From assembly GCA_965222225.1 (NCBI GenBank), contig CBDCTK010000002.1, positions 1,664,001 through 1,728,000 of the forward strand: 64,000 nt of DNA, in the 5' to 3' direction. This stretch comes from Candidatus Poribacteria bacterium (lineage in GTDB: Bacteria; Poribacteria; WGA-4E; JAJDTR01). Under the pieces are notes generated by a model. It did not search any database and was not told the DNA's origin. It saw only the letters and a program-made list of their open reading frames with translations. The translations under genes were made by a program, and so were the position numbers. Below are positions 1-14,284 of this stretch, one piece after another (the first letter of the stretch is position 1; every line of letters starts with the position of its first letter).

Positions 1-129
1 CTCGACGCAGAAAGTATGCCTCGAGCGAGACATAACCACGCCCTCCGTCAATGCGACCGCCATGTCATTCAGTTCGCACGATCCAGTCCAATCTTGGCTG
101 GTTTGATCGTCGCTGTCTTCTAAAGCCAT
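1..129 (-). CDS. N-terminus of unknown 'family X' protein (runs off window); paralogue of 5211-5666
   Basis: AGGAG RBS then ATG at 129; MALEDSDDQTSQDWTGSCELNDMAVALTEGVVMSRSRHTFCVE aligns by eye with DKWRGSWVEVKNVSL...VSQSTHSFELRN of 5211-5666. Confidence 0.6.
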   Translation of the reverse strand, partial: MALEDSDDQTSQDWTGSCELNDMAVALTEGVVMSRSRHTFCVE

Positions 130-224
130 AATAATCTCCTTATCGTGTTAGCGTGAGAGGGGACTACTTACCGGCGAGCCCCCGGAACCGCCGCCGGCGC
201 CCTATGGTGCAGGCTCATGAATAC

Positions 225-520
225 TTAACTCGTCACCGCAGACGTGACAGCACTGATCGCTGTATTCCCGCTTCCGAGATTATCGGTGCACACTACCACA
301 TCCCGCAGTTCCATACCGACATCTGCTGTGACTGGCGTGTAAGTGCTGGACGTTCCGCCCGTGATGCTCGCCCACTCGTCGCTCGACCCTTCATTACGCT
401 TTTGCCACTGCCAAATCAAATTGGAAAGCGGCACATCGGTGTCCGCCAGCGTTACCGTCATTTGTGTGCCAACAACAGGTGTCGTGTCATCAAGCGTCAC
501 AGTGCCGGGCGCATTATTGA
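225..520 (-). pseudogene. Isolated C-terminal Ig/cadherin-like adhesin domain, probably 5'-truncated
   Basis: GTVTL...P.VG..MTVTL.D.D...WQWQ...W..I.G.TSSTYTP...DVG.ELR..V...D pattern; no signal peptide or clear RBS; abuts repeat at ~524. Confidence 0.55.
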
Positions 521-592
521 TTATTAATGTGTGATTCAATTTGAAACTATCACTTCGGTAGTATCAACTACTACCAAAACCCACTGTACATA

Positions 593-621
593 AATATACC
601 GCACATATGTTAAGTTATCAA
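593..621 (-). promoter_or_regulatory. sigma70-type promoter (leftward), copy A
   Basis: Minus strand TTGATA-17 bp-TATATT; same hexamers and spacing at 7526-7554. Confidence 0.6.
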
Positions 622-916
622 TCTAAACTTTATTGTACATTAACCTAGAAAAGCAGAACCATTTGACCCGAAACCGATCAACGGGATTCGGAACTTCCCC
701 GTACTGGCAACCGTGACACTCCCCCCACTCTCGCGAAATTGTAAGACACAGGCACTGTTGCGAGAACTGCCAATGCCACTCCTGCACAGAAAATGAACAT
801 TGGCGTTCACTTGTTAGATACGAAAGCACGAAACGCCATTGCGTCTCCATGACACATCGGGGGGCGAGTTTGATGCAATTCGTGGCATAGTGCCACGTCA
901 GGGCAACTTATGGGCG

Positions 917-932
917 TGGCACAAAACTTGCT
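917..932 (+). promoter_or_regulatory. sigma54 (RpoN) -24/-12 promoter, copy A
   Basis: TGGCACAAAACTTGCT = TGGCAC-N5-TTGC consensus, 56 bp upstream of the beta-propeller operon; identical at 7835-7850. Confidence 0.8.
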
Positions 933-988
933 GACGCTCTACTAACGCAATCAATCCGACAGCCATCAATTCTAAGGGAGGAAGTCCA

Positions 989-2122
989 ATGATATGGACT
1001 CAAATATTCATGCGAACCGCTGTCATTTTCTTGGTAACGATGACTATGCCAGCAAACGAATCGGATGCGAATATCCACGCCGAGTGGACTCAACTCACTG
1101 TCGGGCAGCCCATGGATCGTGTGCGCGTACTTGAGACTGATGGATTCCGCCTCTACGCCGCGGCGGGAATCAGAGCGGAGAGTGGACTGTACATCTCCCG
1201 AGATAACGGTTACACCTGGAATCCAACCGAGCTGAATCACAGCGTTAATACAATTGCAATTGATCAGAATACTCTGTATGCAGGAGGAGATTCGCACGGC
1301 GTATTTCGCTCCGACAATCTCGGGGACACATGGAAGCCCATAAACAACGGAATCCGCACAATTAATGTTGATAACGGCGAAATCCGCCTCCCATACATCA
1401 AGCAAATACTGGTCATTAGTTCCGGCACAGTCGTCGCTGTGGGGTACCACAGCGGTACGCATATATCAACAGACCGAGGTGACACATGGGACGACGTAAC
1501 ACTAGCGTGGAAAGTGGGCCAACGCGTAGCGCCCGACTGGATAATAGGCGATAGCATCTGGTCGATGACCGAGTTCGATGGCTATCTGTGGGCAGTCTAT
1601 TCAAGCACCTCCAGATCCATATTCCGGTCCACTGACAATGGCCAAACGTGGGAATATACTCGCGAACAAAAGTACGGTCAGATAGCTGACTGGTCGGTGC
1701 TCAATGGTCGATTATACGCTGGTACGCGAAACGGCCTTGCCCGATGGAACGAAGCTCAACCGGCTTGGGAGTATTTCTCCGAAGGGCTTCCAGTCCTATC
1801 CATCGGAGCCACAGCCAGTATAAAAAGCCTGACCGTTTATCGCGGCCGTTTGTTTGCCGGACTTTACGATCACGCCGGAGCTGAGGGAGGTGTTTACATG
1901 TTTGATGACCGCATAGACACATTCGTTCCCGCAGGTCTTCAGGGCTCTTCAGTTAGTGTGCTCATTTCCCATCAATCCGAGCTGTACGCAGCAACCTATG
2001 CGCTCCACGAAAGGCAGGCAGGCACCGTCCACACCCCCCAAGGCATCTACCGCGCTACAATTCTGACCGTGCAACCCTTTGGCAAAGCCGCTACCACGTG
2101 GGGCGCTATAAAAACAAAATGA
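989..2122 (+). CDS. Secreted Asp-box (BNR) beta-propeller protein, paralogue 1
   Basis: Signal peptide, repeated SxDxGxTW motifs, C-terminal VQPFGKAATTWGAIK tail. Confidence 0.85.
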   Translation: MIWTQIFMRTAVIFLVTMTMPANESDANIHAEWTQLTVGQPMDRVRVLETDGFRLYAAAGIRAESGLYISRDNGYTWNPTELNHSVNTIAIDQNTLYAGGDSHGVFRSDNLGDTWKPINNGIRTINVDNGEIRLPYIKQILVISSGTVVAVGYHSGTHISTDRGDTWDDVTLAWKVGQRVAPDWIIGDSIWSMTEFDGYLWAVYSSTSRSIFRSTDNGQTWEYTREQKYGQIADWSVLNGRLYAGTRNGLARWNEAQPAWEYFSEGLPVLSIGATASIKSLTVYRGRLFAGLYDHAGAEGGVYMFDDRIDTFVPAGLQGSSVSVLISHQSELYAATYALHERQAGTVHTPQGIYRATILTVQPFGKAATTWGAIKTK

Positions 2123-3171
2123 AAAAAATATCCCTCACCGCCTCTATGCTCCTCGTCATCTCCCTCGCCCGCGCCGAGTGGGAACCCCTTGTCGGTACGC
2201 GCGCCATGAAAACCGTGGACGCACTTGAAAGCGATGGCCGCCGCCTCTTCGCCGGGGGATCGTTGGAAGGACTGTATACCTCGGACGATAATGGTGACAC
2301 CTGGTGTACAACCCACCTGTCAGTCAACTACGCGCAAGCAATAGCTGTCAGCGGCGATGTGATATATGCATTCCTGTATAAGGATGGCATGTATCGCTCC
2401 GACGATTACGGGAAGACATGGCACCGGAAAAACATCGGGCTCCCCGAAACAAATGAGGATACCGGCCTAATTCCGTCCATTAACCAAATACTCCTCACCC
2501 GTTCCGGTATGGTCATCGCTGTGGGCGGCTTTGATGGGACGTACATATCCCGTGACCGAGGAGAGACATGGCACTTCCCGGCCGATTGGTCGTATCCCTG
2601 CCCCGCAGCGCCCGATCACGACCGTAGGATCAGCGATGACCTCGATTCCATGTTCGAGTACGACGGTTATTTGTGGGCAGCCGCGTGGTTCCAAGTATAC
2701 CGATCCCCCGACGACGGCTCTACATGGGAATGCGTGCCAGTATTGCCAAGGCTCGGCGAAGCCTACGACTGGGCAGTGCTCAACAATCAATTATACGTCG
2801 CTGGAGGACACGGCTTTGTACGGTGGAACGAAGGCGAACTCGCTTGGGACGATCTCAACAACGGGCTGCCGGATTACCCTGATTTGATCAGCCTTGCCAT
2901 TAACCGCGGCCGCATCTTTGCCGCAGTTAGGGCGTCATCCGTGATTAGACCCGGGGCTTATAGGACTGTCGCACACGGCGTGTACGTGTTCGATGAGCAA
3001 TCCGAAACCTGGTTTCCCGCAGGCCTAGACGGCGTGGCGGTATACTTGGTCGCATCCGATCAATCCTACCTCTATGCGTCTACGTACAAGGGCATCTACC
3101 GCGCGTCAATACCGATCGTGAATTCCTACGGCAAAACCGCTTCCACCTGGGGCGCCGTTAAACAAAAATGA
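2119..3171 (+). CDS. Secreted Asp-box beta-propeller protein, paralogue 2
   Basis: ATGA overlap with paralogue 1; SDDNGDTW/SRDRGETW/SPDDGSTW; GKTASTWGAVK tail. Confidence 0.85.
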   Translation: MKKISLTASMLLVISLARAEWEPLVGTRAMKTVDALESDGRRLFAGGSLEGLYTSDDNGDTWCTTHLSVNYAQAIAVSGDVIYAFLYKDGMYRSDDYGKTWHRKNIGLPETNEDTGLIPSINQILLTRSGMVIAVGGFDGTYISRDRGETWHFPADWSYPCPAAPDHDRRISDDLDSMFEYDGYLWAAAWFQVYRSPDDGSTWECVPVLPRLGEAYDWAVLNNQLYVAGGHGFVRWNEGELAWDDLNNGLPDYPDLISLAINRGRIFAAVRASSVIRPGAYRTVAHGVYVFDEQSETWFPAGLDGVAVYLVASDQSYLYASTYKGIYRASIPIVNSYGKTASTWGAVKQK

Positions 3172-4292
3172 AATACCTAACCTTTATCGTCACCCTGTTA
3201 AGCCTTCTCATTGCCTCTGCTCTGCTGGTGATCGCCGTCAGGTCTTGCGCGCCAAACGCACATGCCGAAATTCGGGTGGAGTGGATTCCACTCCCCGGCA
3301 CGGAGGGCTGGCACGTGAACGCAATTGAAACCGATGGGCGCCGCCTTTACGCCGCGACGTGGGAGGGGGGCTACATCTCCCTTGATAACGGTAACACCTG
3401 GAGTTCAACCGAACCGCAACACGGTGTTAGTGCAATTGCAATCGATCGAAATAACCTCTATGCAGCGACGTTTCTCCGCGGCGTATTTCCCTCCGACAGT
3501 CACGGGGAGGCATGGGTTCCCATAAACACCGGCATCCGCATGTGGGAGCGCGACAACGGAGAGCGTGGATACCCAATCTTTTCGGATATACTCGTCACTA
3601 GCTCCGGCACCGTCATCGCTGTGGGGTACACCGGCGGCACGTATATATCCAACAACCGAGGCGAGACATGGCACAACGTCGCAGACGAATGGATACGACC
3701 CGGAAGAGACGGACCGCGCGGATTCCCGCCCCTCTACATAGCCCGCCGCATCCGTTCGATGACCGAGTTCGACGGCTATCTTTGGGTGGCCTATTCGAGC
3801 AGCCAGGCATTCCGTTCCCCTGACAACGGCGAAACGTGGGAAGGTCTTCCCTACTGGGCAGACGGCGGGAGCATTGCCGACTTCGGCACCATAGTCGACT
3901 GGGCGGTGCTCGACGATCGATTATATGTCGCCGGACACGAAGGCATTGGGCGATGGAACGAAGCCGAACAGCGCTGGGAGCTTCTCAACCGCGGGCTTCC
4001 GGTCCATAGGGGCGGCGGCATCGGCAGCTGGGATCTGGCGGTTAATCGCGGTCGTATCTTCGCCGCGCCTTTCCTATACGACCGCGGCGTGTGGCTGTTC
4101 GACCGGTCGTCCGAAACATGGGCGCCCGTACGCCCCCAAAACGCCGGACACATGTATTCGATCGCATCCCACGGATCCGATCTGTACGCCACCGGCGAAC
4201 TGGGTATCTACCGCGCTTGGATCCCCGCCGTTCAACCCTACGGCAAATTCGCTACAACCTGGGGCGCAATAAAAGGAAACCCTAAACCATGA
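3168..4292 (+). CDS. Secreted Asp-box beta-propeller protein, paralogue 3
   Basis: ATGA overlap; SLDNGNTW/SPDNGETW; GKFATTWGAIK tail. Confidence 0.85.
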   Translation: MKYLTFIVTLLSLLIASALLVIAVRSCAPNAHAEIRVEWIPLPGTEGWHVNAIETDGRRLYAATWEGGYISLDNGNTWSSTEPQHGVSAIAIDRNNLYAATFLRGVFPSDSHGEAWVPINTGIRMWERDNGERGYPIFSDILVTSSGTVIAVGYTGGTYISNNRGETWHNVADEWIRPGRDGPRGFPPLYIARRIRSMTEFDGYLWVAYSSSQAFRSPDNGETWEGLPYWADGGSIADFGTIVDWAVLDDRLYVAGHEGIGRWNEAEQRWELLNRGLPVHRGGGIGSWDLAVNRGRIFAAPFLYDRGVWLFDRSSETWAPVRPQNAGHMYSIASHGSDLYATGELGIYRAWIPAVQPYGKFATTWGAIKGNPKP

Positions 4293-4711
4293 CACGAACC
4301 CTCACCCTACTCATCTGCCTCACCCTTCTCGCCTGCAGTGAAACGCCCCAGCGGGACGAACCCACCACCGGCGCCTACATCGTGAGCATCAACCCGCCTA
4401 TACTCGACGAAGGCCGTCCCGCCGAAGAGAAAATCAACGTCGGCGAGTTGACCGATGAAGGCTGGCAACCCATCACCATCACCTTCTCCGATATACCTAA
4501 AGACCTTGACGTGCATCACGCGTACTGGAGGGTGTCTGAATGGGTGTTGAAAGGCCGAGTCCTCACTATAAGAACATTTTGCGACTACCGGTGGTATCCG
4601 GGGTCGGAGAACGTCTATTGTCGTCTCGTGGGATGCAGGCTACAAGTACTTAAACTATTGGTGCCCGGACGAATAACAATAAAGTGGACGAGCGGCAGGA
4701 AGAAAGGATAA
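4289..4711 (+). CDS. Putative lipoprotein; 3' end probably truncated or fused
   Basis: Lipobox LLAC; ATGA overlap with upstream gene; overlaps the convergent gene by 57 bp. Confidence 0.6.
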   Translation: MTRTLTLLICLTLLACSETPQRDEPTTGAYIVSINPPILDEGRPAEEKINVGELTDEGWQPITITFSDIPKDLDVHHAYWRVSEWVLKGRVLTIRTFCDYRWYPGSENVYCRLVGCRLQVLKLLVPGRITIKWTSGRKKG

Positions 4712-4963
4712 AACAACCGCCGTCGCAATGGCTATCCCAAGATACCGGAGCATGGTCAACTCGCCCTTCATCTTCTGATTTTCCGATTCAAGGAAACTGA
4801 TCCGTTCTTCAGATTTTCCTAGCCGGTTACAGATATTATCAACGCGCACCACCAGATGCTTAATGTCCGTTCGCGTCTCGGTCACCTGCTGAATCAAAAT
4901 GTCGAGTTTGTTGTCAAGATCGCGCACCCACTGCTTTGGGCCGCCGTCAGATTCGCCGTTCAT
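4655..4963 (-). CDS. Small coiled-coil protein with C-terminal hydrophobic helix (XhlA/holin-like)
   Basis: KQWVRDLDNKLD...KMKGELTMLRYLGIAIATAVV; paralogue of 7027-7317. Confidence 0.65.
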   Translation of the reverse strand: MNGESDGGPKQWVRDLDNKLDILIQQVTETRTDIKHLVVRVDNICNRLGKSEERISFLESENQKMKGELTMLRYLGIAIATAVVLSFLPAARPLYCYSSGHQ

Positions 4964-5151
4964 GAAAATACCCTCTTAATAAAAGCCCATAACCGACGCC
5001 ACCAGCTGGCATGTCAGAAAAGTCTCCTTACTTGTTCTTCATTTACTGAACCCTTCGTAACATGAGACTGATTCTCAGTGGACAGGCAATAGAATACATC
5101 GCCGCGCCAGCAAAAATCACCATGCCGCTAATCGCTCCCGAAAGAAAGCAT

Positions 5152-5188
5152 AAAAATAGCCCGCAGCCGAATATGACCGCGGGCTATT
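5152..5188 (-). terminator. Rho-independent terminator after the family X gene
   Basis: AATAGCCCGC...GCGGGCTATT stem followed by a T-run on the minus strand. Confidence 0.6.
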
Positions 5189-5210
5189 GTCGTCATACCT
5201 AAGACATCCT

Positions 5211-5666
5211 CTAAAGGACAGTGTCATCCGTTTCGCGAGCTTCAATAGCATTGCCAAGCCCCTGGCCACCATCTGGGCGCAGCGCCGTATAGCACTCCAA
5301 CAGATAGATTTTGCCGTCTTGACCCGTGTAATCCATCTGGCGGAAGGGATTCCAACCGTGCACGCGTTCCTGGTCCACGTGGGTCCATACCCGCATAGGT
5401 TCGCCCGCATCACGCGCCGGTATTGTCAACGTTCCACTTAACGTCCGGTGGACGTTAATATCGACGTTAACCCCGTTCACCACCTCATGCAACTTATGAG
5501 CGTACTCGATAGTAAAATCCAGATCCTCGTCCGTTAAATTGCGCAGTTCGAACGAATGGGTTGATTGGGATACAAGCAAGTTGTTGTCGTGAGGTACGAG
5601 GCTCACGTTCTTCACTTCAACCCAACTGCCTCGCCATTTGTCATTTCCTGTCTGAGTTACTCGCAT
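5211..5666 (-). CDS. Unknown beta-rich 'family X' protein (151 aa), intact copy
   Basis: AGGAG RBS, ATG at 5666; no signal peptide; paralogous pieces at 1-129 and 9927-10187. Confidence 0.7.
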   Translation of the reverse strand: MRVTQTGNDKWRGSWVEVKNVSLVPHDNNLLVSQSTHSFELRNLTDEDLDFTIEYAHKLHEVVNGVNVDINVHRTLSGTLTIPARDAGEPMRVWTHVDQERVHGWNPFRQMDYTGQDGKIYLLECYTALRPDGGQGLGNAIEARETDDTVL

Positions 5667-5686
5667 TGTTAATCTCCTTTGTATTG

Positions 5687-6241
5687 TTACCTCGGCCACT
5701 CGGCCGCTACCTCCGCCAACAGATCGAGCGGATCGCCATCATACCGAGTAAAATGCAGGGTAAAGCGATTGGCTCTGAGAGCCAAGGTATCACCCTTCAA
5801 ATAATATCGACCGACGACCGAGTCCAAACACCCGAATCGACCGCCCGACATCATAAATTGACCGTCATCGGTAAACAGATAGTCGCCGATGACAAACTGT
5901 TCTACACGCGGCTCCCAACGACTCTGCCACTCGCGTACGATAAGCCATGAATTCCATCGTCCGCGAGCACCAAAATGAATAATAATACGTCCTATTGGGG
6001 AACTGTGTCGCATCCGCAATAAGTCGTTAAAAATGAAAAACCCCGGTCTTTCATCGGACGGCAGAAAACGCGTTACCCAATAAGGCCCTTGAATGGCTTT
6101 CTCTATTGGCTGTCCGTCATTCAACGGGGCGAAGCGCAGATTTAAATCATCGTCTGCTTCATTATTGGACACTGTTTCCGAACACGCCGCGAGAATTACA
6201 GCAAAACACAGCACGATAAGGCGCATAAATGTCGCTAGCAT
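5687..6241 (-). CDS. Putative lipoprotein, unknown function
   Basis: GGAGG RBS, ATG at 6241; lipobox ILAAC. Confidence 0.65.
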   Translation of the reverse strand: MLATFMRLIVLCFAVILAACSETVSNNEADDDLNLRFAPLNDGQPIEKAIQGPYWVTRFLPSDERPGFFIFNDLLRMRHSSPIGRIIIHFGARGRWNSWLIVREWQSRWEPRVEQFVIGDYLFTDDGQFMMSGGRFGCLDSVVGRYYLKGDTLALRANRFTLHFTRYDGDPLDLLAEVAAEWPR

Positions 6242-6624
6242 GGTAGTTATCCTCCATATAGAAGTTAAGTGTCGGGACACCCGACCGGTATTCCGACAAT
6301 ATCCATCCTAGCCTTATGCAATAATGGAGCCATCAGCTGTTACCAATCGTCGTTCGGATCTAGCATTGATGAATCTCCTTTTGTTAAGAGTTAAAGTGAG
6401 GGCTGCTTAATGGCGAGCCCCCGAAGCCACCCGTTGGGACTACCCAACGAAGTTAAACGTCTTCAGCCTCAGCTTTGGCTTTAGCCTCTGTCTCAAGCCA
6501 CGCAGCCTTCGCCCACCGCGTCTCCGGCATCGGGATCGCCAAACTGGACCTCAGCTCGACTTTGTACAAAAGTACAATGGTTGGGTTGTAACGAGAGCCG
6601 TACAACACCAAACCCGTACGCGGG

Positions 6625-6661
6625 GATCAAATGAGCGGATAGCGAGTGCGATAGAGTTCCC
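6625..6661 (-). repeat. Dispersed 37-bp intergenic repeat (1 of 6)
   Basis: Consensus GGGANCTCTATCGCAYTCGCTATTCGCTCRYTTGATC; other copies at 27485, 40872, 46911, 51598(-), 55119. Confidence 0.8.
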
Positions 6662-6734
6662 ATCTCACTTTTCTCGAACGCTTGATTACCACCGTCTGTT
6701 ATACTTCTTAAATGTACAACGTCAAGCTAAGTAG

Positions 6735-6823
6735 ATTAATGTGTGATTCAATTTGAAACCATCACTTCGGAAGTATCAACTACTACCAAAATGAACTATA
6801 CATATATTAAGTTGTCAACCTAA
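6735..6823. repeat. Control region copy B, left part
   Basis: ATTAATGTGTGATTCAATTTGAAAC...CTACTACCAAAA matches 524-580; includes TTGACA on the minus strand. Confidence 0.85.
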
Positions 6824-7026
6824 AAATTATCAAAAATACAAAAAACTTTCATAGTGACTATGATTTGCTATCAGGATCTTCTATCACACTCATTATTCAC
6901 TCGCGTGATACCTCCCTATCTGGACGGTTGATAGGCTTGTATTGTCAAGTCCCAGCCGTGAACGACGAAGTCGCCTGTAATGCCGTCGGGCTCCGGGACA
7001 TTGTGGAAGCACGTCTATTCTTTTTA

Positions 7027-7317
7027 TCAACCACCTTTTACTGTCATAACAATCGGAACCGCTACCGCCGCAACTACGCCAATCCCGGACAAAATCCACT
7101 TGAGCATCGTGAGTTCCCCCTTGTGCTTTTGGATTTCGTCCTCGACCGCTTTAATCCGATTGTCCTGATTTGCCAACTTTTCGCACTGGGCATCAATACG
7201 CTTGGCTGTGTAGTCGAGATGGACTTCCATCTTGTGCATGAATTCAAGAATATTATCCACCTTCTTATCTATCTCGCGTACCCATTGCTTTAAGCCAACA
7301 TCTTTTTCCTCGGTCAT
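7027..7317 (-). CDS. Small coiled-coil protein with C-terminal TM helix (XhlA/holin-like)
   Basis: KQWVREIDKKVD...KHKGELTMLKWILSGIGVVAAVAVPIV. Confidence 0.7.
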   Translation of the reverse strand: MTEEKDVGLKQWVREIDKKVDNILEFMHKMEVHLDYTAKRIDAQCEKLANQDNRIKAVEDEIQKHKGELTMLKWILSGIGVVAAVAVPIVMTVKGG

Positions 7318-7523
7318 GATTCAATGACTCCAATATTATCCTGCAAGCGGGCGCCTCCCTCTTTGAGTGTATGTGTTGCCACTCCACAACGGACTGGCGA
7401 CACGGAAACATATTGTCCTTCCGTAGGCTGTTGCGACAAACTATCTAAATTATCTATTGCCTCTTTCTCCTGTCGAAATCTCGGAAGCATCAAATTTCTA
7501 TCGCCGCCGGTTAATTCCTTGCT

Positions 7524-7850
7524 AAAATATACCCCACATATATTAAGTTATCAATCTGGAAATTTTATTGTACATTAACCTAGAAAAACAGAACCACTTG
7601 ACCCGAAACCAATCAAAAGGAGTCATCCTCGCACTGGCAACCGTGACACTCCTCCCACTCCGGAGAAACTGTAAGACACAAGCACTGTTGCGAGAACTGC
7701 CAATGCCCCTCTTGCACAAAAAATGAACATTGGCGTTCACTTGTTGGATACAAAAACACGAAACGCCTTGACACATCGGGAGCGAGTTTGATATCATTCG
7801 TGGGATACTGCCGAGTCAAGGCGACTTATGGGCGTGGCACAAAACTTGCT
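7524..7850. repeat. Control region copy B, right part (sigma70 promoter 7526-7554 minus; sigma54 promoter 7835-7850 plus)
   Basis: Colinear high similarity to 592-932. Confidence 0.9.
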
Positions 7851-8115
7851 CCATTAGAAGTTAGGCACAAAAACTTGCCTTTCACGGAAGGTGATCCAAC
7901 CATGTGCTCTCGGCGCTTAATGCGAACCGCTTTCAATGTCTTAGTACGGTCGTTGGCTCAAGCGCATTCTATGCGGGACGACTATTCGACCTCCAAGAGA
8001 CGAGCCGCGCGTCCGAGTGTTAGGTGAAGATTGCGAACTGCAGACTTACATAGTCAGATCGACCCAACCCTATATTTTAAAGAGCTACTCTACGAGATAC
8101 ACTTCCGTTAGAACA

Positions 8116-9180
8116 ATGCGAAAACGAGAAAGAACCAACCCCTTCCTCGCGTTACTAATCGTCCTCGTCGTCTGCGCCCCGGACGCCCCCGCCGAGTGGG
8201 AACACATCGCCGACAAAGAGCAGACGGGACACATATACAGGCTTGAAAGCGATGGCCGGCGGCTCTACGCCACCAGCAAGGAGTATGGCGTCTCCAAATC
8301 CCTCGATAACGGTTACACCTGGCGTCGAACCCCACTCAAGCACAGTGGGGAACTTGCAATCAGCGACGACGCCGTATATGTGGGCACCTGGCGACACGGC
8401 TTGTTCCGCTCAGACGATCACGCCAACACCTGGACAGCCAAAAACAACGGCATGCCCGCATATAAAGTGACCGAACGCACCCCATCCGAAACCTATCCAG
8501 ACATTTGGGACATACATATTACAAACTCCGGTACCGTCATCGTTGCGAGGTACCAACTCGGCACGTATATATCCAACAACCGAGGGGAGACATGGCACGA
8601 CGTATCAGACAAATGGTATTGCCACCACGACAAATTAGGGGCATTGGAAGTCGCCAGTAGCCTCGTGTCAATGACCGAATTCGACGGCTATCTTTGGGTT
8701 GCCCAGAACCAGGGCGCTAACCTGTTTCGTTCCCCTGATAACGGGAAAACGTGGGAATGGATTCCCAACGGCATACCCGGCGTTCTATTCGAGTACGGCG
8801 ACCCAAACGACTGGGCAGTGCTTGACGATCGATTGTACATCGCCGGCGACAGAGACGGAAAAGGCATTGGAAGATGGAACGAAGCGGGGCTCATTTGGGA
8901 CAATCTAAGTGACGGGCTCCCGCGACAGCCGATATCTAGCCTGGCCGTTTACCGGAGGCGTCTCTTTGCCGGAGTTACTAAGCACGGTGTGTTCATGTTC
9001 AATCAGCGATCCGAGACGTGGAGTTACGCCGGTCTGTTCGGCTTAACCCCTACCGCGCTCGTATCCCATCAATCCGCCCTTTACGCCGGAACGTACGAAG
9101 GCATCTACCGTGGTTCCATCCCAATCATCCAGCGCTACGGCAAACTCGCCGTCACGTGGGGCGCCGTTAAAACAGAATGA
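8116..9180 (+). CDS. Secreted Asp-box beta-propeller protein, paralogue 4
   Basis: SLDNGYTW/SNNRGETW/SPDNGKTW; GKLAVTWGAVK tail; start codon uncertain (8017 or 8116). Confidence 0.8.
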   Translation: MRKRERTNPFLALLIVLVVCAPDAPAEWEHIADKEQTGHIYRLESDGRRLYATSKEYGVSKSLDNGYTWRRTPLKHSGELAISDDAVYVGTWRHGLFRSDDHANTWTAKNNGMPAYKVTERTPSETYPDIWDIHITNSGTVIVARYQLGTYISNNRGETWHDVSDKWYCHHDKLGALEVASSLVSMTEFDGYLWVAQNQGANLFRSPDNGKTWEWIPNGIPGVLFEYGDPNDWAVLDDRLYIAGDRDGKGIGRWNEAGLIWDNLSDGLPRQPISSLAVYRRRLFAGVTKHGVFMFNQRSETWSYAGLFGLTPTALVSHQSALYAGTYEGIYRGSIPIIQRYGKLAVTWGAVKTE

Positions 9181-9288
9181 AAACCCTAACCCTTATCGTC
9201 ATTATCCTCATCAGTGGCGCCCTAGACGCCCGAGCCGAGTGGGAATACAACCCCAGCAGGGAGGAAATGGGAACAATATACACACTAA
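9177..9288 (+). pseudogene. Truncated N-terminus of beta-propeller paralogue 5
   Basis: ATGA overlap; signal peptide + ARAEWE...IYTL matches paralogue starts, then runs into antisense of the next gene. Confidence 0.65.
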
Positions 9289-9521
9289 CACAGAGCACCC
9301 CGTGTACCGAGAATATTTGCGCACCATCTACGACATCCGGCGATCTCCTTCTTATTTTCCGTCACATCCCGCCGGATTTCATCAACCTCCCGCGCCAACT
9401 CCTTATAGTTTCCCATAGTCTCCTCTTTGATGTTGGCAATCTACGCCCGTATCCCCGAACTTAACGCAGCGAACTTCTTGTCGATTTTATGGATTGCCTC
9501 AAGAATTTCCTTGCCTTCCAT
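9285..9521 (-). pseudogene. Two short coiled-coil gene fragments (9441-9521 MEGKEILEAIHKIDKK; 9285-9416 MGNYKELAREVDEIRR), possibly XhlA-like
   Basis: First starts by TAATG overlap, second has GAGGAG RBS; weak similarity to 7027-7317. Confidence 0.4.
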
Positions 9522-9901
9522 TACGCAAACATCACCACCCCGCTCCGAGCATCATCATAGCCAAGACCGCGAACCACGACCCCGTCAGTTTGAGGCTCAA
9601 AGGTGAGCAAGTCGAGCCTCCCACCGTCGTCCGATAAAACACAGTTATAGGCGTGGCGAGCACTGACATCAATAACGATACCGATGCCGTTAATGTCCCA
9701 GCGCTGCGCCACATCGCCTGCCAAGCAGACCGCGAAGTTGTCGTAATCGCAATGCTCCGATATATAATGCTCGAGGTCTACCAGATAGTAAGCGAGGATC
9801 TGCTCCCACACCTTCCGCGACAACCCCTGGAACCGAGAATCCAATGCCCACAGCCCCAGATTGCGCAGCGCAGAGAACTGGTGCGCCCGGCCGTAAAACA
9901 A
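9521..9901 (-). CDS. MOA/agglutinin C-terminal-like papain-fold protein, probably inactive or decaying
   Basis: Y.SE..DyDNFA ... HAYN ... FEPQ motifs; expected DCDxF cysteine is Tyr; start uncertain. Confidence 0.55.
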   Translation of the reverse strand: MFYGRAHQFSALRNLGLWALDSRFQGLSRKVWEQILAYYLVDLEHYISEHCDYDNFAVCLAGDVAQRWDINGIGIVIDVSARHAYNCVLSDDGGRLDLLTFEPQTDGVVVRGLGYDDARSGVVMFA

Positions 9902-9926
9902 CGTGCCTACACAGACCTTATTATGG

Positions 9927-10187
9927 CTAGGGCACCGTACATATGTCCTCAGCCTCGGATCTTATAGTTGTCGTACCCTGCACTTTGACTAGAGTGTAGG
10001 CGCGTACCCTATACCTGTCGCCCGATTGCCCCCTGATGTCAACCGACCGACGAGTATTCCAACCCTTATCAGACTCCATGTCGTCGGAGTCGTACCAACC
10101 GGCATTTTCGATAGTAACGTCACCAGCATTCCAATCGTCGGCGTTTGGCAGAGTGTCGTGTTCAACGTCATTCGTCCAGCCTCTGAC
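9927..10187 (-). pseudogene. 5'-truncated third copy of family X (not in ORF track)
   Basis: ...[38 protein letters not shown] resembles MDYTGQDGKIYLLECYTAL...IEARETDDTVL. Confidence 0.5.
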
Positions 10188-10251
10188 TCAGCATCCTCAA
10201 ATCCTATCTCACATACCCTTAAAAAGTAAACCATTTGGAGCACACTTAGCC

Positions 10252-10965
10252 ATGTCCACAAACTCCTCAATAGAATGGACCGAAACCACTTGGAATCCGG
10301 TGACCGGCTGTACGAAGATAAGTCACGGTTGCAAATTCTGCTACGCCGAGCGAATGTCCAAGAGGCTTCGAGCCATGGGAGTTGACAAGTACAGAGACGG
10401 GTTTTCAATCACCGTACACGAATCCGCCCTCAAAAATCCACTGAAGTGGCGTAAACCGCGCGTAGTTTTTGTCAATTCCATGTCCGATCTCTTCCATAAG
10501 TCGGTGCCGACGGCGTTCATTGAATCCGTTTTCGAGATTATGAATAGGGCACCTCAACACACGTTTCAGGTACTCACCAAGCGGCCGAGTCGAGTTGCCC
10601 AAATAGACGGGAGATTGAATTGGACGCCGAACATCTGGCTGGGTACAAGCATCGAATCCGAAAAGTGGCTTGGGCGGTTGGAACCGCTCAAGGAAACTGG
10701 CGCCCAGATAAAGTTTTTGTCGATCGAACCGCTGCTCGGGCCATTGCCGGAGATACAGTTGCGAGGAATCGACTGGGTAATTGTCGGCGGTGAATCCGGG
10801 CCTGGCGCAAGGCCAATGCAACCTGACTGGGTGAGAGAGATTCGCGACAACTGTCTTCAGCATGGTGTCCCCTTCTTCTTCAAGCAGTGGGGCGGCGTAT
10901 TCAAGAAGAGAACGGGTAGGACGTTGGATGACGAAATATGGGATCAGATGCCGCAGCGGAAATGA
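10252..10965 (+). CDS. DUF5131 / phage Gp37-Gp68 family protein
   Basis: [60 protein letters not shown]. Confidence 0.9.
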
Positions 10966-11069
10966 GCGAGATGAACCAGAACCACATCTCCCGCCTCAAA
11001 CGGCATCATGATTGACAGACGTAAAATATGAAAATGGATAGAATGTTATAAATTGGAGGCACAAACACA

Positions 11070-11261
11070 ATGAAACCTAAAATGACGATGCTCTACTGGA
11101 AATCGGACAAATTTTGGCTAGGAAAGCTCCTTGAACACCCCGAAATAATGACGCAGGGCGAGACCATTGAGGAATTGGAAGAAAATATAAAAGACGCCTA
11201 TCTTCTCATGGCTATGGACGATGTGCCGGAAGAGTATGAGACGAAAGAAATTGCAATATGA
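11070..11261 (+). CDS. hicB: HicB-family antitoxin (short form)
   Basis: MTQGETIEELEENIKDA motif; GGAGG RBS. Confidence 0.8.
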   Translation: MKPKMTMLYWKSDKFWLGKLLEHPEIMTQGETIEELEENIKDAYLLMAMDDVPEEYETKEIAI

Positions 11262-11380
11262 AGCGAAGACAGTTTGTTCGCCAACTCTTGAATGAGGGTG
11301 GAGTTATGCTGAGACATGGTGCAAGACACGACATTTATCTAAACCCTGAGACAGGACTCAGGCAACCCGTTCTAAGTTGA
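11258..11380 (+). pseudogene. hicA: Truncated HicA toxin (40 aa)
   Basis: MKRRQFVRQL...LRHGARHDIYLNP...RQPV then stop where PRH.EI is expected; ATGA overlap with hicB. Confidence 0.7.
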
Positions 11381-11458
11381 CTGTGCAATTGCTTCTTTGG
11401 TCATTTAACGCTGTGAAAAAAGCATGAAACGACTAGCAATTTTCTGGAAAGATGTCTT

Positions 11459-14284
11459 ATGGAACAGAAGTCAATCGATCGCTTAATCGTCAATTCCCCC
11501 TATGAGGAACCGGCGAGGCACTGGACCTATAACCGTGAACGCCGTACCTTCTCGCTCTCGGAGGGACGCCGTCCGGCTGGGTATGTCGTCGCATCCGAAG
11601 GTTCGCGAGCGTTCGATGATCCGGGTCATTTTGTTGAAATCCCTCTCGTTAACCAAATTCGCTCGCGCGTCAAAGCTTGGCGTGACTTCGGGTATCCGGG
11701 CGTCACTGGAATAACGAAACGCTTGCTTGAGCACTGGAATTCGCCAAAGGAGTTTGACGACCGGCCGTTCTTCTTCTGCCAACTGGAAGCCGCCGAGACG
11801 TTGATCTGGCTCGCCGAATCACCCGCCTCCGAAAAGGTCGGGGTGGAAATCCCATCCGATGGCGGAGGATTCCGGCGCTTATGTGCGAAGATGGCAACAG
11901 GTTCGGGGAAGACCGTCGTCATGGGGATGGTGATTGCTTGGCAGATTCTGAACAAGGTTACCAATCCTCAAGATTCTCGGTTCGCCCGAAATGTCTTGGT
12001 GATCGCACCTGGACTCACGGTCAAAAGCAGATTGGCAGTGCTGCAGCCTTCACACCCCGAAAACTATTACCAAGAGTTCGATGTTGTCCCGTCCTCCTTA
12101 CGCGATAAGCTACATCAAGGAAGGGTATTGGTGCGAAACTGGCACGCCCTCAACTGGGAAACCGAGGATAGAATCGCCAAGAAACGCAGCGTGGACAAAC
12201 GAGGTGTCAAAAGTGACGAAGCCTATGTCCGCGAGGTTCTCGGTGAAATGGCAAATACCCGGAACTTGCTGGTCATTAACGACGAAGCGCATCACGCCTG
12301 GCGTGTTGCAGTTGAATCAAAAGTCAGGGGTGTGACGAGGGATCAAATTGATGAGGCGACCAAATGGGTCGGCGGTTTGGATCGTGTCAATAAGGCAAGA
12401 GGCGTTCTTGCTTGCTACGATTTCTCTGCTACTCCCTTCACGCCATCGGGAAAACGGAGTTCGGAGGAGGCATTATTCGGCTGGATTGTGAGCGACTTCG
12501 GATTAAACGACGCTATTGAGTCTGGATTGGTTAAGACGCCGCGCGTTGTTATTCGTGACGATGCCGTCCCCGACGCCGAAACCTACAAATCCCGTCTCTA
12601 CCATATCTACAACGACTCTGAGGTCAAAGACGACCTGAACCGCAAAGCAAGACCCGAGGAACCGTTGCCAGATTTGGTCATGAACGGCTACTACCTACTC
12701 GGCTATGATTGGCGGGAAACCGCGAGGAATTGGGCGAATCGACAGAATAGCACCCCACCGGTGATGATTACCGTCGCTAACCGCACCGAGACAGCGGCGC
12801 GCGTCAAATATGCGTTTGACCATAGCAAGGTGCACATCCCAGAACTCTGCAATCGGGATCGAACACTTCACATCGATTCCAGGGTGCTAAGCACTGCCGA
12901 AGCTGCCGAGGAGCCGATTGCCATGATCTGGGGCGGCGAGGACGAGGCGGATGACGATCACGCGTCTAAACTAACAAAGAAGCAGCAAGCCGAGTTGCTT
13001 CGCCTGAAAGTCGACACTGTAGGTCGGCTAAACAGAGAGGGTGAGAAGATACAGAACGTCATCTCGGTTGGGATGCTTTCGGAGGGCTGGGACGCGAAGA
13101 CCGTGACTCACATCATGGGCTTACGCGCCTTTACCAGCCAACTCCTGTGTGAGCAGGTGGTTGGTCGAGGCCTGCGTCGCACCTCCTACGAAACGAAGAA
13201 ACAAACCGACCCTTCAACCGGGAAAACGATTGAACTCTTTGAGCCCGAGTACGTTAACATCTTCGGCGTTCCCTTCGCGTTTTTGCCGCATGAGTCTGTC
13301 GACGATGTCATTCCCATCCCGCCGCAGCCTAAAACGGCCATTGAGCCGGTAGCAGACAAAGCAAAATTTGAAATCTCTTGGCCCAACGTCATCCGCATAG
13401 ACCACCTTTACCGCCCACGCCTAACGCTTGACCCGCAACGCCTGAAACCGCTCGAACTTGACGCCACTCAGACTGCCCAGATTGCAGAACTTGCACCGAT
13501 TGTTGAAGGCAAGCCGGATATAACGAAGATTCAGGCGATAGATTTAGAGAAGCTGGCACGTGAATTTCGCACACAGCGAATAATCTTTGAGACCGCCCGG
13601 GACGTATATGAACAAATGCACGGCGATTGGCGTGGCAGCAAAGAGTTTCTTCTCGCTCAGCTTGTTCGGCTCGTGGAGCAGTTTATCCGTTCAGACTCAA
13701 TCAGTATCAAACCGGTTTTATTCCTTCAGGACGACCTCAAGCGGCGTCTCATTATCACGCTTAACATGACCGGAGTGGTTCGGCATATCTGGGAGGCAAT
13801 CCGCTTTGAGAATACGGAGAAGCTTGAGCCTGTGTTTGACCGAGATCTGCCAATTCGTGCAACGAGCGATATGGGTATCTGGTATACCGGTAAGCCGTGC
13901 GAATACACGGTGCGAAGTCATATTAACTTCTGTGTATACGATAGTACCTGGGAAGCAACGGAAGCCTTTCAACTGGACAATAATCCCCAAGTAGAAGCTT
14001 GGGCAAAGAACGATCATCTCGGATTTGAAGTGTTCTATATCCACAACGGCGTAGTTCGGAAGTACCGTCCCGACTTTCTCATCCGTCTCAGTTCAGGTGA
14101 TACGTTGGTGTTGGAAACGAAAGGCCGTGAAAGAGATCGGGATAGAACCAAACGTAGATTTCTCAAGGAATGGATTCAGGCGGTCAACGCGCATGGCGGG
14201 TTCGGACGCTGGACTTGTGACGTGTCAAGGGCTCCAAGCGATGTCTTGGATATCCTCACACGGCATTCACAAGAAAAACAGTGA
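11459..14284 (+). CDS. Type III restriction enzyme Res subunit-like helicase/nuclease
   Basis: KMATGSGKT, DEAHH, SATP, LSEGWDA, QVVGRGLRR, C-terminal YRPDF...LETKG. Confidence 0.88.
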   Translation: MEQKSIDRLIVNSPYEEPARHWTYNRERRTFSLSEGRRPAGYVVASEGSRAFDDPGHFVEIPLVNQIRSRVKAWRDFGYPGVTGITKRLLEHWNSPKEFDDRPFFFCQLEAAETLIWLAESPASEKVGVEIPSDGGGFRRLCAKMATGSGKTVVMGMVIAWQILNKVTNPQDSRFARNVLVIAPGLTVKSRLAVLQPSHPENYYQEFDVVPSSLRDKLHQGRVLVRNWHALNWETEDRIAKKRSVDKRGVKSDEAYVREVLGEMANTRNLLVINDEAHHAWRVAVESKVRGVTRDQIDEATKWVGGLDRVNKARGVLACYDFSATPFTPSGKRSSEEALFGWIVSDFGLNDAIESGLVKTPRVVIRDDAVPDAETYKSRLYHIYNDSEVKDDLNRKARPEEPLPDLVMNGYYLLGYDWRETARNWANRQNSTPPVMITVANRTETAARVKYAFDHSKVHIPELCNRDRTLHIDSRVLSTAEAAEEPIAMIWGGEDEADDDHASKLTKKQQAELLRLKVDTVGRLNREGEKIQNVISVGMLSEGWDAKTVTHIMGLRAFTSQLLCEQVVGRGLRRTSYETKKQTDPSTGKTIELFEPEYVNIFGVPFAFLPHESVDDVIPIPPQPKTAIEPVADKAKFEISWPNVIRIDHLYRPRLTLDPQRLKPLELDATQTAQIAELAPIVEGKPDITKIQAIDLEKLAREFRTQRIIFETARDVYEQMHGDWRGSKEFLLAQLVRLVEQFIRSDSISIKPVLFLQDDLKRRLIITLNMTGVVRHIWEAIRFENTEKLEPVFDRDLPIRATSDMGIWYTGKPCEYTVRSHINFCVYDSTWEATEAFQLDNNPQVEAWAKNDHLGFEVFYIHNGVVRKYRPDFLIRLSSGDTLVLETKGRERDRDRTKRRFLKEWIQAVNAHGGFGRWTCDVSRAPSDVLDILTRHSQEKQ

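Follow-up and report, generated by a model that had tools for sequence, protein, structure and literature searches.

A reiterated control region with divergent sigma54- and sigma70-type promoter motifs heads secreted propeller genes in one genus of Poribacteria

The first 10.2 kb of a 64-kb stretch of a Candidatus Poribacteria genome (G000:C2:1664001-1728000; the window) hold a repeated control region made of two parts: a right module (RM), followed rightward by genes for secreted beta-propellers and lipoproteins, and a left module (LM), followed leftward by small genes for a holin-like protein (XHL) and for leaderless proteins, among them one that we call family X. At a probability of roughly 0.6, we read this as a genus-specific, reiterated sigma54/sigma70 divergon that has been copied along with an expanding family of secreted propellers. 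Poribacteria are dominant uncultured sponge symbionts whose dealings with their hosts are largely guesswork, and in this case a regulon can be defined by a DNA signature, an enhancer/promoter block of ~195 bp with 75 copies in ten genomes of one genus. Linked to this signature are a family of propellers, of which a single genome can have as many as 26 matches, and small conserved genes that also turn up in metatranscriptome assemblies of sponges. The block may be a natural example of whole promoter-enhancer blocks being copied together with a gene family, and it offers testable handles: a dyad with which to look for an activator, a promoter pair for reporters and, as candidates for expression, a holin-like protein and a short set of secreted binding proteins.

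An open reading frame (ORF) listing and repeat finding gave the map of the first 10.2 kb (Table 1), and the repeated control region of the original prediction proved to be a true DNA repeat with individual matches of 86-90%. By repeat finding and BLASTN, two intergenic regions are alike at 84-90% over ~330 nt, the aligned segments being 696-837 and 7626-7767 (90% identity), 625-689 and 7560-7624 (89%), and 860-932 and 7778-7850 (86%). A further match between 523-595 and 6735-6807 (90%) marks a partial LM; in all, the cassette is present in the window twice in full and once in part. RM contains an invariant dyad, TGAAC-N6-GTTCA, about 110-117 bp upstream of a sigma54 -24/-12 site, TGGCAC-N5-TTGC, and ends in TGGCACAAAACTTGCT, an exact match to the -24/-12 consensus. 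This consensus (TGGCACNNNNNTTGCW) occurs twice in the 64-kb window, once in each RM, against 0.05 matches expected, and 0 of 100 shuffles reached two; on the scale of the genome a looser sigma54 pattern is uninformative (222 matches, ~170 expected). The motif is retained in 35 of 42 RM matches found by BLAST in this genome and 16 congener loci, and also in copies with an insertion of ~47 nt between the conserved block and the motif. LM carries a leftward, near-consensus sigma70-type promoter, TTGATA-17-TATATT, whose hexamers and spacer are almost invariant in an alignment of 21 copies; the sigma70-like site at the partial LM is weaker. The 21 copies have two classes of leader, one ahead of XHL and the other ahead of family X or a gene for an Ig-like protein. 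These motifs, exact sigma54 matches on one side and LM promoters facing the other way, fit the divergent sigma70/sigma54 arrangement that had been proposed.

RM is a DNA element, neither an RNA nor a gene. A scan of positions 1-11500 against Rfam, with expectation values (E) up to 1 allowed, gave zero matches, and RNAalifold run on 25 RM copies predicted eight pairs (the dyad and one 3-pair stem), none of them covarying; a structured RNA or riboswitch was therefore dropped as a candidate. A 19-codon ORF inside RM (MNIGVHLLDTKARNAIASP) was dropped because copies B and F have an 11-nt deletion within it.

Thirteen cassette pieces are found in this genome by BLASTN, corresponding to eight RM copies (A-H) and seven LM copies. 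RM stands ahead of propeller genes at six loci, of which one is frameshifted and one split, and at another locus a small lipoprotein gene and then a LamG-like one come after it; of one copy only 82 nt are left. All eight RM copies contain the dyad. Its exact 16-mer occurs six times in the genome, always within RM, and a relaxed form nine times, eight of them in RM. The genome encodes RpoN (PF04552, 2 matches) and has 14 strong matches to sigma54 activators (PF00158).

The cassette is confined to one genus among the genomes searched. BLASTN detects it in 9/9 congeners and in 0/31 genomes of other genera, and a sequence-only model of RM (R1) has 75 matches in 10/10 genus genomes, 2-17 in each, with no match in the 91 genomes searched from 16 further genera of the order. 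The propeller family was found at E <= 1e-20 in 9/9 congeners (1-26 matches each), in 12/21 genomes of another family, with 1-2 matches apiece that often fall in frames of ~790-870 amino acids, and in 0/29 genomes of two further families. A sigma54-like motif lies upstream of the propeller homologues outside the genus in two of four loci, both of one genus; the loose pattern used there is near chance density, and the observation is only a hint.

Gene order was compared at 16 loci of 7 congeners, annotated with the modules and proteins of the window. The succession propeller array, RM, LM, XHL, LM, family X recurs at L036 (twice), L037, L039, L041, L047, L050 and L051. In the congener loci LM lies directly upstream of XHL in 10/11 copies, with RM beyond it in 6/11, and directly upstream of family X in 5/10 matches, most of the others being within ~1 kb of XHL; matches to the family X profile adjoin cassette matches. 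Lesser features of the window are found again as well: L048 has a homologue of the 197-residue lipoprotein between XHL and family X, and in L042 a homologue of the 126-residue ORF (47% identity) follows family X, as at 9521-10187. Over this genome and the 16 congener loci, the first ORF downstream of RM is a propeller in 19/42 cases by our own count, and in 8/41 cases (7 distinct ORFs) it belongs to the family of the small lipoprotein at 4289-4711. The same promoter modules and gene order are found in all 9 congeneric genomes searched, which bears out the proposal of a co-regulated, duplicating cassette. It had been set beforehand that this proposal should fall if the families were unlinked in other genomes, and they are linked.

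Under the divergon reading, RM would be a DNA-level enhancer plus promoter. Its dyad and flanking conserved blocks would bind one of the 14 sigma54 activators, and the bound activator would drive the -24/-12 promoter ~110 bp downstream of the dyad. The operons so controlled would be those for proteins exported through Sec or as lipoproteins, namely Ycf48-like propellers, LamG-like proteins (both ending in TWGxIK) and small lipoproteins. LM would serve as a near-consensus sigma70 promoter with one of the two leader types, repeated ahead of each small leftward gene, whether for XHL or for a leaderless beta-sandwich protein (family X, Ig-like, lectin-like). The cassette would have spread alongside the expansion of the propeller family, its copies being kept alike by binding-site constraint and some gene conversion, and its products could form a switchable set of secreted or surface proteins used in the sponge, likely for interaction with the host.

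RNA from sponges covers both sides of the cassette. The data come from three studies with four metatranscriptome runs of sponges in all, whose contigs were aligned to positions 1-12000; the ends of such contigs cannot fix transcript starts, and gaps between contigs were not used to rank expression. Single contigs extend over propeller 4 in three runs (7820-9166, 7705-9369 and 7856-9485), and the fourth run has a contig at 7815-8522. On the leftward side one contig spans family X and the neighboring lipoprotein gene (5199-6416), and further contigs cover XHL and 9145-10179.

Several observations weigh against the divergon reading. There is no sigma54-activator gene adjoining any cassette in this genome, and a genome search did not find the dyad near any activator gene. 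Contig starts at 7705, 7815 and 7820 lie upstream of the start of ~7860 expected from the sigma54 site, with one, 7856, near it, and among the contigs listed propellers 1-3 are represented by short pieces only. RM-B has a sigma70-like site, TTGACA-18-TATCAT with a TG, at 7768-7797 (11/12 matches), which could be its working promoter, and with so strong a site tandem promoters are possible. Finally, the 25-copy alignment includes 7 RM copies of this genome, and each of them is closest to another copy of the same genome.

Part of this evidence would also suit an RM that is mainly a sigma70 promoter region, with the dyad as the operator of a classical repressor or activator and the -24/-12 site secondary or unused. 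Such a promoter would consist of a -35 TGACA and a -10 T[GA]NAAT/TATCAT ~40-60 nt upstream of the sigma54-like motif, where little or nothing varies among 25 copies in the columns GACACATC and GAT..A.T; to this can be added the RM-B site and the contigs that begin at 7815 and 7820 in two studies. However, contig ends are not transcript ends, and the -10 is mostly TGCAAT or TGAAAT, in which G at position 2 makes a poor sigma70 element. The -24/-12 site is retained in those 35 of 42 copies despite upstream insertions. We consider a sigma70-driven RM unlikely.

The nearest neighbors within this genome indicate that the likeness of RM copies is partly due to gene conversion rather than constraint, and 15 of the 25 aligned copies have their nearest neighbor in another genome; constraint and gene conversion both contribute. 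Between paralogues A and C the conserved block of RM is 88-95% identical and the leader and signal-peptide region 82-97%, and the mature propeller coding sequence mostly 50-75%. The propeller genes of copies C and D, ~970 kb apart (in order of position, G000:C2:2026825-2027892 and 2998799-2999920), are ~100% identical over ~1.1 kb, and the RMs upstream of them are merely ~85% alike, with the break inside RM ~50 nt ahead of the -24 element, which points to recent duplication or gene conversion. Rearrangements are also seen in RNA: in one contig 3144 is linked directly to 4257, with a single propeller unit of 1112 nt missing, a second contig runs from 9369 into an LM copy, and two from other strains part from the window at 10179, where family X is cut short. 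These joints suggest structural polymorphism among strains.

Such turnover could mean that the conserved 5' cassettes are chiefly recombination substrates, used to shuffle, delete and convert propeller genes so that the set of surface or secreted proteins varies, much as in gene families with antigenic variation. The C/D pair, the contig joints, the truncated or split propellers (9177-9464 and loci E and G) and the RM neighbors within this genome would all agree with it. Mycoplasma vsp/vlp genes are variable surface protein families with a conserved 5' expression cassette, and a similar contrast is seen here in paralogues A, C, D and E, whose mature proteins are far less conserved than the stretch of promoter, leader and signal peptide. 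In contrast to vsp/vlp, no phase-variable tract or site-specific recombinase was seen here, and regulation is apparently by sigma54. Repeat finding gave one weak inverted pair, with no recombinase or invertible flanking repeats seen, the 15 RM copies nearest to another genome imply that many copies are old and stable, and turnover of this kind is expected in any tandem array of paralogues. Recombination as the chief function of the cassettes is very unlikely in our judgment.

The rightward genes encode arrays of secreted Asp-box propellers at 989-4292 and 8116-9180, much as had been proposed. BNR (PF02012) is matched above its cut-off of 27 bits by three of the four (37.8, 30.7 and 27.8 bits), and the fourth scores 20.3. 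In an AlphaFold2 model of propeller 1, with a predicted local distance difference test score (pLDDT) of 84, a signal helix at the N-terminus is followed by a 7-bladed propeller and, at the C-terminus, by a disordered tail; the model's best matches in the PDB are Ycf48 structures (Foldseek E 2.4e-12, template modelling (TM) score 0.70 on the target). As regards sialidase (GH33) or GH74 enzymes, the only matches of the propellers are local ones at the level of repeats, to GH74 (E 9e-6) and to a BNR/F510_1955 glycosylhydrolase, the latter below its cut-off. Judged from the model, a role as binding scaffolds of the Ycf48 type seems likelier than an enzymatic one. Ycf48/HCF136 (PDB 2xbg, 5ojp), a 7-bladed BNR propeller of photosystem II (PSII) assembly that acts as a protein-binding scaffold and not as an enzyme, resembles them in its Asp-box blades and its similar size, but identity is 14%, Pfam PSII_BNR is matched at E 0.048 at best and by one paralogue, and the host lineage is non-photosynthetic. 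The propellers described here are moreover secreted, TWGxIK-tailed and arranged in arrays.

A tail TWGx[ILVM]K within 8 residues of the stop is shared by 60 ORFs genome-wide, mostly of 270-380 amino acids, which include the four propellers (ends 2122, 3171, 4292 and 9180) and LamG-like proteins. Three LamG-like genes lie in tandem, divergent from propeller D (G000:C2:2028441-2031175), and a further member is found downstream of RM copy F (3029102-3030031), with a transposase-like fragment and an LM piece between genes. Two paralogous sigma54-activator genes (~530-residue frames; G000:C2:3951099-3953577 and 2322332-2323633) are each followed by TGGCATAGGG[TC]TTGCT, and after one of them comes a gene for a further TWG-tailed protein; sigma54 control of TWG-tailed proteins may extend past the RM cassette.

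On the leftward side, a profile made from homologues in databases picks out four copies of family X when run on the 75,247 six-frame ORFs of this genome (E 1e-6 to 9e-6). Three of them, at 1-147, 5211-5699 and 9930-10187, are exactly those predicted in the first 10.2 kb (1-129, 5211-5666 and 9927-10187); copy A rose from E 1e-6 to 1.2e-43 once included in the profile. A fifth candidate (C2:2995994-2996458), adjoining an LM copy, was left uncounted at E 0.26. The profile also matches 59 cluster representatives among 1.84 billion proteins, mostly of ~150 amino acids. A word-based search found 6 proteins, jackhmmer started from a single family X protein returned only that protein, and a search for related loci with a family X alignment confirmed none. 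The structure is predicted with a pLDDT of 97.1 as an all-beta sandwich with long strands. Its best fold matches in the PDB and among viral models (BFVD) are generic Ig-like sandwiches at TM <=0.46, a profile search against the PDB gave 0 hits, and ESM Atlas scores (<=0.81) are uninformative. Going by the model, family X is a leaderless beta-sandwich without a close structural relative. Signal peptides are missing from family X, the Ig-like protein and the 126-residue protein alike. The predicted Ig domain at 225-539 was recovered weakly, with matches to SCAB-Ig (E 5e-4) and ZirU (E 1.8e-6), and a predicted papain-like protein was not found in any ORF scanned. Lipoproteins, also predicted, are represented by two with lipoboxes (4289-4711 and 5687-6280).

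XHL matches Pfam XhlA (PF10779) at E 1e-4 with 22.9 bits, below the cut-off of 34.7, and PHROG holin 689 at E 5.6e-5 over its full length, and in the ESM Atlas the clusters closest to it (0.94) consist of small tailed-phage proteins. The divergent XHLb (4655-4963) is 35-38% identical to XHL and has no Pfam XhlA match. By sequence and alignment (A5), both have an N-terminal coiled coil, a conserved KGELTML and then a hydrophobic stretch of ~20 residues. Of the three holin-like proteins proposed originally, these two (4655-4963 and 7027-7317) hold up, and the third (9285-9521) does not: it has an in-frame stop, no hydrophobic tail and a BLASTP match at E 0.1. XHL is present in 8/8 genus genomes (86-95% identical, 1-4 matches each), and a phage origin is likely.

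The leftward genes could then be a domesticated phage lysis-type module, in which holin-like XHL would release the leaderless proteins (beta-sandwich, Ig-like and lectin-like) from the cell. Release could take the form of non-lytic export or of lysis in part of the population, and it would be coupled to the secretome under sigma54 control. The matches of XHL to phage proteins and the three proteins without signal peptides are in keeping with this. So are the lytic cassettes of PBSX and SPbeta in Bacillus subtilis (PMC6834076), where a beta-sandwich protein (XepA or YomS) occurs with the XhlA and XhlB holins and an amidase; there, too, a small all-beta sandwich protein has a small coiled-coil membrane protein of the XhlA type as its neighbor. 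Compared with these, our cassette lacks an endolysin and a second holin, its genes are chromosomal, multi-copy and tied to propeller operons, and family X is unlike XepA/YomS in sequence and fold, these being absent from the PDB profile hits and from the top Foldseek list. Among 10 local proteins scanned with Pfam and PHROG there was no endolysin, lysozyme, amidase, spanin or second holin, and the XhlA and holin scores are below curated cut-offs. A domesticated lysis module is quite unlikely, and it is equally doubtful that an XHL release route is wired to the same intergenic switch as the sigma54 propeller set, so that both classes of binding protein are deployed in the sponge matrix. If true, an uncultured phylum would have a new route of non-canonical secretion or of altruistic lysis; the analogy with XepA-XhlA and with holin-dependent secretion is a lead, not a finding. 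The original suggestion of effector, membrane-disrupting or immunity proteins among the leftward genes found no support.

Nor do the leftward genes look like ordinary prophage lysis genes that happen to lie beside propellers, the other ground on which the original prediction was to be given up: no endolysin or phage structural gene is there. A decayed prophage or mobile remnant next to unrelated propeller genes would account for phage-like XHL and for a DUF5131 (phage Gp37/Gp68-type) gene and a ResIII gene to the right. Within the 10 local proteins, however, PHROG matches are limited to XHL and the DUF5131 protein (0/8 of the others), with no phage structural, replication or integration gene, and XHL is conserved throughout the eight genus genomes. 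In 7 congeners, many loci have units of XHL, family X and LM next to RM and propellers, and this synteny largely refutes the remnant, which we hold to be extremely improbable.

The original prediction knew of no described system with this layout, and our literature search, Poribacteria included, found none. Two known arrangements resemble the divergon in part. In Rhizobium, NifA/sigma54 nif promoter regions are reportedly reiterated, with nifH repeats on symbiotic plasmids and shared upstream regions of ~160 bp in R. meliloti. There, as we propose for RM, one block that combines a sigma54 promoter with the activator region upstream of it is copied before several operons of a host-associated bacterium, whereas here the block has 8 copies per genome and 75 in ten genomes, is paired with an opposite sigma70-type module, and drives secreted propellers and lipoproteins, not nitrogen fixation, if it works as we propose. 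In the psp divergon of enterobacteria, pspF under sigma70 is divergent from the sigma54-dependent pspABCDE. It shares with the cassette the divergent sigma70/sigma54 layout, with an enhancer (in RM a putative one) between the promoters, and a set that includes small membrane and coiled-coil proteins. Unlike psp, the cassette is multi-copy, has no activator gene on its sigma70 side and shows no Psp homology.

Table 1. Features of the first 10.2 kb of the window (window coordinates unless a contig is named).
Feature	Position	Strand	Remarks
Family X copy A, N-terminal 43 codons	1-129	minus	Whole gene G000:C2:1663731-1664129, 132 amino acids; leaves the window
Ig-like leaderless protein, 104 amino acids	225-539	minus	First gene downstream of LM-A; weak Ig/ZirU matches
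Intergenic region with LM-A and RM-A, 466 bp	523-988		From repeat finding
LM-A	523-738		Sigma70-like promoter TTGATA-17-TATATT at 621-593 (minus); putative leader hairpin at 557-575, read from the sequence without folding
RM-A	739-935	plus	Dyad TGAACATTGGCGTTCA at 794-809; sigma54 -24/-12 site at 917-932
Three tandem secreted BNR/Asp-box propellers (1-3)	989-2122, 2098-3171, 3168-4292	plus	TWGxIK end on each
Small lipoprotein with lipobox	4289-4711	plus	Last gene of propeller operon; family also after RM in congeners
XHLb, divergent XhlA-like coiled-coil protein	4655-4963	minus	C-terminal membrane anchor; convergent to propeller operon
Terminator-like hairpin, 14-bp stem	5155-5188	minus	Directly beyond the family X stop
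Family X, intact copy	5211-5699	minus	Likely start 5666 (151 amino acids); predicted all-beta sandwich
Lipoprotein with lipobox, 197 amino acids	5687-6280	minus	Shares one RNA contig with family X
Partial LM copy	6735-6828		Sigma70-like site at 6833-6804 (minus); heads lipoprotein/family X unit
XHL, XhlA/holin-like tail-anchored protein, 96 amino acids	7027-7317	minus	
Second full intergenic region with LM-B and RM-B	7525-8115		From repeat finding
LM-B	7525-7668		Sigma70-like promoter at 7554-7526 (minus), placed to drive XHL
RM-B	7670-7850	plus	Dyad 7724-7739; sigma54 site 7835-7850; extra sigma70-like TTGACA-18-TATCAT at 7768-7797
Propeller 4	8116-9180	plus	
Remnant of a fifth propeller, N-terminal	9177-9464	plus	Likeness confined to signal peptide and first residues; 8162-8239 vs 9205-9282, 72%
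ORF with in-frame stop	9285-9524	minus	
Leaderless protein, 126 amino acids	9521-9901	minus	Weak lectin C-terminal-like match; follows family X here and in G009
Family X copy without N-terminal half (5'-truncated)	9930-10187	minus	

A few smaller features complete the map. A GC-rich hairpin followed by AAGGAG is found, by eye, in like form at 6336-6433 and 153-195 on the minus strand. At 153-195 it precedes family X copy A, and at 6336-6433 it precedes an 8-codon ORF (MLDPNDDW, stop) ahead of the lipoprotein gene, which looks like a severed family X N-terminus. Between the lipoprotein gene and the partial LM, positions 6440-6663 have at least 15 further translated-level matches in the genome and are probably a dispersed repeat; many RNA contigs break at 6622-6656. 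To the right of the cassette, 10255-14284 holds the DUF5131 gene, a 63-residue ORF and a 941-residue ResIII protein, and no RNA contig of the four runs lies on 10401-10800. The start of this stretch coincides with the strain-variable junction, and the whole resembles an island of the defence type that was inserted there.

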